Shown here in pieces: positions 15,001-18,000 of a stretch of DNA of 18,298 nt (the stretch's first letter is position 1; each line of letters begins with the position of its first letter). This DNA is from a virus (lineage: Duplodnaviria > Heunggongvirae > Uroviricota > Caudoviricetes): the IMG/VR virus record IMGVR_UViG_2529292905_000017, positions 1 to 18,298 of that record; one strand, written 5' to 3'. The position numbers were made by a program.

Positions 15001-18000
15001 GGATAATCGCGGATTCAGGTGCTGGTACTGAATTCACCGGGAGACACCCGGCACCATGCAATGGCACATAGCGCCACTCTCCAGCCCCTCTCCGGAGGGG
15101 CTGTTTATATTGATTTTGTCAGATGTGAGTAAACTCCTTATGGACTTTGTTGTTTTAGCCCATAAGGACATATTTGCAGAGTGCAACGGTTATTAAAGCA
15201 TTCATTCAATACGTTATCTGTATTTGTAGGGCATTCCTGGCTGTTTTTGATTAAATTCCAGAATGTTTTATTGAATGGTACTACGTTGTAAATGGTTACA
15301 GGTAGCACTTTGTTATTGAGCATGATACCTGTGTGAGTCAGTGTAAATATACTTTCAGGAGGTAAGAAAGCATCCGATTGATACCAGATTATTAATTTTA
15401 TTTTACTCCATATGACTGAAAAAGATATTCCGCATGATGGCTGGATAACTGTATCAATCACAATCCACTTCATTTAGTTTCCTTGTTTATGCCTTGCTGG
15501 TGATGTTCTGAAAAGTATACATGATATTTTTGATTGTAAACCATAGAGCAGAATTATTTTTCTGATGTTGTTTATTGTTTATTTAAATGCAGGGTGGTTT
15601 ATATCTCGTCTTGTAGTTTATCCATGCATATCTGCTTGATGATGAGGTTTTTATTTAAGGTATGGTTTTGTGTTTTTTCTGTATTACATGTCAGGTATTT
15701 TAAAGAATCATTTTTCAGATGGTGGAAAGAACCATGGCATTTAAACACTATGATGTTGTCAGGGCGGCGTCGCCGTCAGATCTTGCGGAAAAGCTGACAC
15801 ATAAACTGAAAGAGGGCTGGCAGCCGTTTGGTAGTCCGGTGGCCATAACCCCTTATACCCTGATGCAGGCGATTGCAGCAGAAGGTGATGTGGTCGTCAG
15901 TGGTGCAACTGAGCCGGAGTGGTACTACGTCATCGTACTGGCCGGGCAGTCCAATGCCATGGCTTACGGTGAAGGGCTTCCGCTTCCGGATTCATACGAT
16001 GCGCCCCATCCGCGCATTAAGCAACTGGCCCGTCGTAACACAGTGACTCCCGGTGGTGAAGTATGCGTATTTAACGACATCATTCCTGCTGACCATTGTC
16101 TGCATGATGTTCAGGATATGAGTACGATTAACCATCCCCGGGCTGACCTGAGCAAAGGGCAGTACGGCTGTGTCGGACAGGGCTTACATATTGCCAAAAA
16201 ACTGCTTCCGTATATCCCTAATAATGCGGGGATCCTGCTGGTACCATGCTGTCGTGGTGGTTCGGCATTCACCCAGGGCACGGAGGGGACATTCAGCGAG
16301 TCCACGGGGGCCAGTCAGGATTCGGCTCGCTGGGGAGTGGGTAAGCCGTTATATCAGGATCTGCTTTTCCGCACGAAGGCAGCATTGCAGAAAAACCCGA
16401 AAAACGTTTTGCTGGCGATATGCTGGATGCAGGGGGAATTCGATATGACGAATGCCAGTTACGCCCAGCAGCCAGCAGCATTTCTTGCAATGGTACAGCA
16501 GTTCCGTGCTGACCTTGCCGGGCTGGCGGCGCAGTGTCACGGTGGAAGTCCGGCATCAGTCCCCTGGATTTGTGGCGACACGACATACGCGTGGAAACAA
16601 GAACACGGTACGCAATATGAAGTGGTATATGGTGCATATAAAGGTAAAGAATCCCAGCAGATTTATTTTGTTCCCTTTATGACCGATGGTAGCGGAGTTA
16701 ATACACCGACAAACAACCCGTCAGAAGATCCTGATATTGTCGGGTCTGGTTATTACGGTTCGGCATCCCGAACGAACAAAAACTGGGTATCATCAAATCG
16801 CCCGACGCATTTCAGCTCATGGGCGCGTCGTGGCATTATTCCCGATCGTATGGCAACCGCTATTCTGAACGCAGCCGGGCGCACCTCAGCCTTCATCAGT
16901 GGTAAGGCACCGGAAATCAAACCCTCGCCCGGCGGCGACACGCCATCGGGTCCGTCTGCAGATACGTCCGTTCGCACAATCTCCCTGCTGCCGACAGCCG
17001 GAGAGGCTGCTGCGCAGGGCTGGACCATTAAGGACGGCGGAATTCAGTTGTCGGGTGGTGTATTTAAGATCGCCAAGCAGAGCAATAAAACCTGGTCCCT
17101 GACGCGCCCGGTGGATGACGCAGTCTCCCTGCTGACACGGGGTGGCAGACTGAGCTGTAAGTTTCGACTGTCAGGCGCACTGACCAACAATCAGTTCGGT
17201 CTGGGAATTTATCTGTATACCGATGTAGCGTTACCTGACGTCGTGGCGATGACGGGTACCGGTAACCCGTTCCTGATGTCGTTCTTCACCCAGACCACAG
17301 ACGGCAAACTGAATCTGATGCATCACAAGAAAGCAGGAAACACAAAGTTGGGCGAGTTCGGGAATTACAGTAACGACTGGCAGACGCTGGAGCTGGTGTT
17401 CACCGCCGGCAGTGCCACGGTTACTCCGAAACTGAATGGAGTGGCTGGCCCGGCATTCCAGGTCATAAAAGACAGTCTGACACTGGGGCTGAATGCGCTG
17501 ACGCTGACGGATATTACCAAAAATGCAGCGTATGGCGTTGAGATAGAAAGTCTGGTGCTGGAGATAAATGCACCGGCATCATCATAAAAAGTGAGCCAGT
17601 CAAATGGAAGGTATCGTTAAACTCACCGGTAGTGTCAGTGGGTCGTCTGAGATGCCTGCATGAGTTATCAGAGCCATCAGTACTTAACTGGTGGCTTTTT
17701 TTATTGTTGTCAGCTTCCGGATAACGGGAGACGGGGTATGTACCAGATGGAAAAAATCACAACAGGTGTGTCATACACCACGTCAGCGGTGGGAACGGGC
17801 TACTGGTTCCTGCAGTTGCTGGACAGGGTTTCCCCGTCTCAGTGGGCGGCAATAGGCGTGCTGGGAAGTCTGCTGTTTGGGCTGCTGACATATCTGACTA
17901 ACCTGTATTTCAAAATCAGAGAGGACCGGCGTAAGGCCGCCCGGGGAGAGTGAATAATGAACCATGAAGAAATGAATCAGCGCTTCAGTCGCCTGGAAAA

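Follow-up and report, generated by a model that had tools for sequence, protein, structure and literature searches.

IraL was described as the IraM paralog of uropathogenic Escherichia coli CFT073 (Hryckowian et al. 2014, mBio 5:e01043-14, PMC4045071), and a later paper gives its CFT073 locus tag as c1429. [quoted passage not shown] Deletion of iraL reduces log-phase sigma-S in CFT073 and in Shigella sonnei, with the sigma-S half-life falling from ~5 min to ~2.5 min, and the gene together with 100 bp of its native upstream DNA gives higher log-phase sigma-S in K-12 (PMC4045071). The structural work on the IraM-RssB complex removed IraM residues 79-107, and the 1-78 core still binds RssB; the removed tail is described there as less conserved, flexible and proteolytically unstable in full-length IraM (PMC10844676). 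Three clusters of IraM residues contact RssB, namely I4, I6, W22, K26 and I42; T13, C14, F18, W30 and L75; and I61, Y62, H63 and I64 (PMC10844676). PmrD is likewise a small protein that binds the receiver domain of a response regulator (PMC10844676).

The window, which is the whole stretch of viral DNA analysed here (18,298 nucleotides), contains on its minus strand a 111-residue ORF that is very probably a prophage-borne iraL, encoding an RssB anti-adaptor with its own promoter that would stabilise sigma-S in the growing lysogen. The features of the locus are collected in Table 1.

Table 1. Coordinates of iraL, its expression signals and the surrounding prophage features in the window.
Feature	Position	Strand	Remarks
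DicF	2565-2616	(-)	
Q-like antiterminator	11738-12301	(+)	
DNA methyltransferase	12874-13923		
Two tRNAs	13973-14048, 14150-14226	(+)	
STnc100-family sRNA	14923..15112	(+)	Rfam RF02076, 128 bits (gathering score 47)
Variable module with iraL	15069..15757		Alignment and blastn against fS25a
Terminator hairpin of the STnc100-like RNA	15082-15103		Convergent with iraL; terminator scan
iraL CDS	15138..15473	(-)	ATG start, 111 aa + stop
iraL 5' UTR	15474..15506	(-)	33 nt, contains the Shine-Dalgarno sequence; start at 15506 is the published 5'-RACE end
Shine-Dalgarno AAGGAA	15479..15484	(-)	5 nt before ATG, within the mapped 5' UTR; direct reading
Probable -10 hexamer TATACT	15514..15519	(-)	-13 to -8 from the mapped start; predicted from sequence
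Probable -35 hexamer TTTACA	15535..15540	(-)	-34 to -29; 5/6 matches; 15-bp spacer; predicted
NanS-p-type esterase gene	15719..17587	(+)	DUF1737/SASA family, intact, 622 aa; PGAP of homologous loci; phrog_143
Holin	from ~17660	(+)	Assigned from the fS25a annotation
IraL, RssB-binding beta-barrel core	residues 1-78		
IraL, Cys4 tail	residues 79-111		C81, C92, C97, C102

Identity and coding evidence of the minus-strand gene

The product of the ORF is identical at 111 of 111 residues to WP_000871291.1, encoded in the potB prophage of E. coli CFT073, and the two coding sequences are separated by 2 synonymous differences in 336 nt. The NCBIfam model NF007393, 'anti-adapter protein IraM', is matched with 162 bits (cut-off 121) over residues 1-110 of 111, and a phmmer search of the PDB retrieves IraM (8TWD_A, E=9e-32). 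IraL and K-12 IraM display 62% identity in an ungapped comparison over 107 aa; counted over a 112-column alignment, the value computed here is 66/112 = 58.9%, which reproduces the 58.9% identity reported for the pair in PMC4045071. The complete identity to the CFT073 protein, the NF007393 match and the reproduced IraL/IraM identity value therefore identify the ORF as iraL. PMC4045071 assigns genes to the IraL lineage at >=95% identity to CFT073 iraL across the whole coding region, and a promoter plus 5' UTR to the iraL type when it is >=96% identical to that of CFT073. Here the protein is 100% identical, and window positions 15474-15606 differ from CFT073 at 4 positions (~97% identity). As judged from its sequence, the gene is thus one already known, the experimentally studied iraL of the IraM family of RssB anti-adaptors (NF007393 / PRK09919), and for the window the practical value of this assignment lies in its correct annotation as IraL. 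In RefSeq the gene is named 'anti-adapter protein IraM', and the label of the phage-protein family PHROG 4407, to which it belongs, is 'unknown function'. The preliminary description had not recognised the gene as iraL; the sensitive homology search and the Foldseek comparison of a predicted structure that it recommended returned the NF007393 match and 8TWD_A at a TMt of 0.90, respectively.

That description had reported a 111-aa minus-strand gene at 15138-15473 preceded by a strong Shine-Dalgarno sequence, AAGGAA, and its coordinates are exact, the motif lying at 15479-15484. It had further considered a long ORF unlikely to be chance in AT-rich DNA where stop codons are frequent, which is borne out by three lines of evidence. 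In a mononucleotide shuffle test (5000 shuffles of 15113-15718), an ORF of >=111 codons arose in 24/5000 shuffles (0.5%), the mean longest ORF being 52 codons, and the ORF is thus more than a chance occurrence. Homologs are identified as described above, and comparison of iraL with two paralogous lineages that have diverged gives a dN/dS of 0.18 for K-12 iraM and of 0.12 for the lineage of the Stx2c phage, values that are approximate because dS exceeds 1 and synonymous divergence is saturated. Homology and dN/dS, independently of the shuffle test, confirm from sequence comparison that ORF 15138-15473 is a real, coding gene.

The ORF has a GC content of 34.5%, compared with 32.7% for the surrounding 15113-15718 and 50.1% for the entire window. 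The AT-rich island at 15113-15718 extends over 606 bp at ~33% GC; the preliminary description was accordingly right about the AT-richness around the gene but overstated its extent, which is ~0.6 kb and not 1 kb. A similar division applies to its proposal of recent horizontal acquisition. The gene does behave as mobile cargo: roughly one in four complete E. coli genomes has it, the most similar sibling prophage lacks it, and a few deposited phage genomes contain it. The term 'recent', which had been derived from the low GC, does not hold, as AT-richness is an old trait of the family: K-12 iraM has a GC content of 34.0%, and dS between the lineages is above 1. The C-terminal cysteine cluster and the several tryptophans were correctly noted. 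The translation includes the Cys-rich string quoted in the preliminary description, the four cysteines being C81, C92, C97 and C102, and the four tryptophans are W3, W22, W30 and W72.

Transcript start, prophage setting and distribution

The published 5'-RACE end of the CFT073 iraL mRNA, ACATCACCAGCAAGGCATAAACAAGGAAACCA (PMC4045071, section 7), matches the window from 15506 on the minus strand with one SNP, and a script search located a single exact occurrence of the first 30 nt of the published mRNA end in the window, again from 15506 (-). The own promoter that had been proposed within 15480-15700 is borne out by this mapped start. PMC4045071 predicts sigma-70 -10 and -35 elements for iraL, and probable counterparts are listed in Table 1. 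A generic promoter scan missed the iraL promoter because it requires spacers of 16-18 bp, the spacer here apparently being 15 bp. The four substitutions relative to CFT073 lie at 15476 (5' UTR), 15507 (-1), 15520 (-14) and 15534 (-28), the one at 15476, 3 nt before the ATG, being T in the window and C in CFT073. By analogy with CFT073, the promoter allele of the window is likely to be active. A second iraL copy in JJ1886 carries a promoter variant whose activity is given as unknown in PMC4045071.

Searches for further signals around the gene gave negative results. The search gave no clean intrinsic terminator for iraL; the hairpin close to it has its T-run only on the + strand. The best match to a Fur box in 15474-15720 reached 11/19, which is background for the window. 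An increase of IraL is reported for a fur mutant of CFT073 (PMC7157518), and any effect of Fur on IraL is probably indirect. The sole site similar to a PhoP box, at 15569-15585 (11/12), is not significant, 171/3000 shuffles (5.7%) scoring as well.

As judged by its closest relative, the prophage of E. coli fS25a (81% coverage, 98.1% identity), the window corresponds to the early through late regions of a lambdoid prophage at potB/potC. The Q-like antiterminator, tRNAs, STnc100-like RNA, esterase and holin genes all lie on the + strand and iraL on the - strand, in agreement with the earlier proposal that the gene is transcribed against the late operon. The end of the STnc100-like RNA is separated from the iraL stop codon by 26 nt, and iraL and the esterase gene are divergent, with a 245-bp AT-rich intergenic region common to both. 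The fS25a potB/potC prophage lacks iraL and displays unrelated, shorter DNA in the same slot; homology to it ends at ~15068 and restarts at ~15741-15758. From these breaks, iraL travels in a module of ~690 bp, to which the STnc100-like RNA contributes its 3' end with the terminator and the esterase gene its first 13 codons, iraL and its promoter region lying between them. In lambdoid and Stx prophages, the slot directly upstream of a NanS-type esterase gene repeatedly holds IraM-family genes as cargo on the opposite strand.

A megablast search with 15000-15800 revealed the segment in 2624/5426 complete E. coli genomes, the ORF being annotated as 'anti-adapter protein IraM'. At >=90% identity, iraL is present in ~1441 E. 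coli records, about a quarter of the complete genomes, and at >=99% identity in 1161 records; some member of the IraM family occurs in 4757/5426 E. coli genomes. Among deposited phage genomes, four contain iraL with 98% identity. A word-indexed homolog search reached Escherichia proteins only, whereas an exhaustive profile search reached other genera and identified 94 relatives of IraL, whose sources, where looked up, include Salmonella salamae, Citrobacter, Enterobacter, Cronobacter, Intestinirhabdus and Dryocola.

Core fold, Cys4 tail and competing readings

AlphaFold2 (AF2) with a shallow alignment of 13 sequences gave a poor model of IraL (pLDDT 63), whereas a 40-sequence alignment gave a mean pLDDT of 87, with residues 1-80 above 90. 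The closest structural match of the latter model in Foldseek is 8TWD_A (TMt 0.90, rmsd of 1.3 A over 78 columns). [quoted passage not shown] Ten of the 14 RssB-contacting residues of IraM are identical in IraL, and the remaining four are conservative replacements (T13S, L75I, H63N and I64V). IraL may thus contact RssB similarly to IraM in 8TWD. The restriction of the IraL contact to RssB's N-terminal domain in two-hybrid assays suggests, however, that the 8TWD binding geometry may not transfer in full.

In the proposed mechanism, a sigma-70-type promoter of its own would drive iraL from a start at 15506 on the minus strand, against the direction of the prophage late genes. With such a promoter and orientation, IraL would be made in the lysogen during ordinary growth. 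Expression in the lysogen had been anticipated in the preliminary description, and in CFT073 iraL is indeed expressed in log phase from the integrated prophage, its deletion halving the sigma-S half-life (PMC4045071). The N-terminal beta-barrel (residues 1-78) would bind the response-regulator-like adaptor RssB, and RssB occupied in this manner would be unable to hand sigma-S (RpoS) to the ClpXP protease. Sigma-S would then last longer and accumulate already in log phase, so that the general stress response would be pre-armed. The gene accounts for a difference between strains that was already known: where iraL is carried, E. coli and Shigella maintain high RpoS in exponential growth, a condition suggested to benefit uropathogens.

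Conservation within the family is highest in the Cys4 tail. When 40 full-length family members sharing as little as ~20% identity with IraL were aligned, invariance was confined to the columns of W72, C81, C97 and C102, and C92 is conserved in 39/40 members by column. When the family alignment was used to devise a motif, C-x(8-20)-C-x(3-7)-C-x4-C, it was found in 40/40 members, IraL included, the usual form of the tail being C-P-x9-C-x5-C-x4-C-P. Purifying selection on the tail is as strong as on the core (dN/dS 0.10-0.18). In the AF2 models the pLDDT of the tail is <50 with 13 sequences and ~70 with 40, and Foldseek revealed no structural match for the IraL tail. This pattern of conservation suggests that the Cys4 tail has a role separate from that of the core. 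Tentatively, the tail may be no flexible extension that the protein can spare, but a metal-binding module, most likely for Zn, or a redox-sensitive one that controls the stability or activity of the anti-adaptor; we regard this as possible rather than probable. If it is true, metal or redox state would feed directly into the stabilisation of RpoS. Within an incomplete coverage of the literature, no mention of zinc or of the tail cysteines was found in PMC10844676, its preprint or two other anti-adaptor papers, and the conservation of Cys4 may be under-described. Both this conservation and the recurrence of IraM-family cargo in the esterase slot go beyond the literature that we found.

The beta-barrel itself is shared with PmrD, and the protein could in principle be a PmrD-like 'connector' acting on another response regulator, such as PmrA, and not on RssB. 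The IraL core displays the same small beta-barrel as the PmrD structures 4HN7, 2JSO and 2RQX (TMt 0.69-0.74), of which 4HN7 is matched by Foldseek at a TMt of 0.74 and E=6e-4, so that PmrD ranks next after IraM; a family profile gives a weak PmrD match that spans the entire core (E=0.011), and relatives of IraL carry a precomputed PF11183 label (PmrD; PF11183.15). That label conflicts with a Pfam-A hmmscan at E up to 10, which assigned no family to IraL or K-12 IraM, and identity to PmrD is just 14-21% in the structural alignments. PmrD also lacks the Cys4 tail, its chains of 85-89 residues ending just past the core, and it targets PmrA instead of RssB. In IraL the positions through which IraM contacts RssB are conserved, and for the identical CFT073 protein RssB binding and sigma-S stabilisation are published (PMC4045071), which contradicts a PmrD-like role and makes it very improbable.

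The anti-adaptor assignment has also to be weighed against the genomic context, which resembles that of a phage 'moron' conferring superinfection exclusion, anti-phage defence or toxicity: the gene is AT-rich, lies on the opposite strand with its own promoter in a slot beside the stx site of Stx phages, and belongs to PHROG 4407 with its uninformative label. The phenotypes of phage resistance or toxicity that the preliminary description put forward find no support, as none of the defence-system models of PADLOC-DB was matched with E values up to 1 and the protein is known as a regulator. Since this regulatory function was demonstrated for the identical protein (PMC4045071), and since chromosomal relatives across Enterobacteriaceae are named IraM by their sources, a moron of this type is highly unlikely. 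That the ORF arose by chance in AT-rich intergenic DNA, or is a pseudogene decaying there, would agree with the mosaic nature of the region, where PGAP annotates spurious fragments or pseudogenes immediately adjacent. The likelihood of this reading is nevertheless negligible, given the rarity of such a length among the shuffles, the full-length identity to an experimentally studied protein, the dN/dS of 0.12-0.18 and a copy kept at >=99% identity in 1161 records; homology and selection exclude chance as the origin of the reading frame.

Comparison with the K-12, Stx2c-prophage and CFT073 loci

K-12 IraM (YcgW) belongs to the same NF007393 family as IraL and displays the same core fold and Cys4 tail, IraL having 4 extra C-terminal residues. 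K-12 iraM nevertheless represents a paralogous lineage and is not the ortholog of iraL. The coding sequences share 71% nucleotide identity, and no homology between the iraL and iraM promoters was found outside the CDS. With no orthologous locus or promoter and homology confined to the CDS, an assignment of the window gene to IraM sensu stricto, the K-12 ortholog, was rejected. Homology limited to the CDS fits a different regulation of the two genes: K-12 iraM adjoins e14 and reportedly responds to Mg2+ starvation by induction, while the action of IraL falls in log phase without stress (PMC4045071, PMC10844676).

E. coli O157:H7 SS52 carries a third, distinct lineage in its Stx2c prophage; the IraM-family protein encoded there, WP_001303568.1, comprises 107 aa, is encoded at 40.7% GC directly downstream of stx2cB and displays 75% amino-acid identity to IraL (80/107). 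The SS52 gene occupies the same slot in the same orientation as iraL, opposite to the late genes and directly upstream of an SASA/NanS-type esterase gene, and window positions 14894-16200 align at 69% to this prophage. No experimental study of WP_001303568.1 was found in the literature.

The locus of CFT073 iraL displays the same neighbourhood as the window, with an STnc100-like RNA, iraL and a DUF1737/esterase gene in a lambdoid prophage at potB/potC. Differences between the two are observed on both sides of the gene. Upstream, the prophage genes of the window comprise a DNA methyltransferase and two tRNAs, compared with an IS200 and three tRNAs in CFT073, and the downstream esterase gene, which is a truncated pseudogene in CFT073, is intact in the window.

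Limits and neighbours of the iraL module

The closest overall match to the window is the E. coli fS25a prophage, which occupies the same potB/potC site without iraL, the gene for the RssB anti-adaptor IraL. Window positions 15069-15757 are replaced in fS25a (~18211-18381) by shorter, unrelated DNA, and this iraL-less prophage with another segment in its place thus defines the limits of the iraL module, the right edge of which falls within codons 1-13 of the SASA/NanS-p-type esterase gene. Coordinates of the features discussed are shown in the table. The STnc100-family RNA terminates in an intrinsic hairpin (15082-15103) that is convergent with iraL, leaving a gap of 26 nt between the end of the RNA and the iraL stop codon. 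The 5' two-thirds of this RNA is common to the fS25a prophage, whereas its 3' end and terminator are not. One of the two phage tRNAs is Arg-TCT, while the other, with a CAT anticodon, is classified as Met by ARAGORN and as tRNA-Ile in the annotation of a related genome. At the position corresponding to this region of tRNAs and the phrog_2873 ORF, fS25a displays a TerB-family pseudogene. Where the window has DicF, the related prophages carry dicB and ydfC-type genes, as is typical for Qin/Rac-like lambdoid prophages.

Features of the iraL module, of the prophage and of the Stx2c-prophage relative (window positions unless stated)
Feature	Position	Strand	Remarks
DicF antisense sRNA	2565-2616	-	Rfam RF00039, 76.7 bits
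Phage tRNAs (n = 2)	13973-14048 and 14150-14226	+	
117-aa ORF, phrog_2873	14337-14690	+	after the two tRNAs
sRNA, STnc100 family	14923-15112	+	strong Rfam match, 128 bits (gathering score 47)
IraL tail, residues 81-111	15138-15233		
iraL 5' UTR and core promoter substitutions vs CFT073 (n = 4)	15476, 15507, 15520, 15534		
PhoP-box-like direct repeat TGTTTATTGTTTATTTA	15569-15585	+	11/12 matches
WP_001303568.1, IraM family	NZ_CP010304.1 (E. coli O157:H7 SS52) locus, 4001-4324	opposite to stx	107 aa

The iraL upstream region

Among the substitutions that distinguish the window from CFT073, one lies 3 nt before the ATG, and the others, in order of position, at -1, -14 and -28 relative to the transcript 5' end mapped by published 5'-RACE. 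The C at 15520 is present in neither comparison locus (CFT073 and strain 7/2). Relative to the iraL start, the PhoP-box-like repeat is located 63-79 bp upstream; it is not significant by itself, since shuffling the AT-rich region gives a score as high in 5.7% of cases.

Family labels and profile matches

PHROG 4407, which matches IraL over its full length (E = 3e-73), carries the label "unknown function" in PHROGs v4, and the RefSeq name of the gene is IraM instead of IraL; these labels represent an annotation gap for a protein that has been studied by experiment. Relatives recovered by the homolog search (P0001-P0020) carry the precomputed Pfam label PF11183.15 (PmrD), whereas an hmmscan of IraL and K-12 IraM against Pfam-A returned no match, even at E up to 10, a discrepancy that may reflect different model versions. 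Several long proteins of 470-1540 aa (P0059, P0072, P0081, P0089, P0090, P0094 and others) present 4-8 short matches each to the IraM-family profile; they are probably not homologs but sequences with repeats or a biased composition.

The Stx2c-prophage lineage and the cysteine tail

WP_001303568.1 displays 75% identity with IraL and constitutes a third IraM-family lineage, on which no experimental work was found in the literature searched. Its gene is flanked by stx2cB and a SASA esterase gene in the Stx2c prophage, and this module of SS52 is homologous throughout to window positions 14894-16200 (69% identity). In the family alignment, which comprises 40 IraM-family members of several enterobacterial genera, conservation is highest at Trp-72 and at the C-terminal Cys-81, Cys-92, Cys-97 and Cys-102. 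The Cys tail of IraL may constitute a metal-binding or redox module. The conservation of its cysteines across the 40 proteins contrasts with the structural literature searched, where the tail is rated less conserved and flexible.
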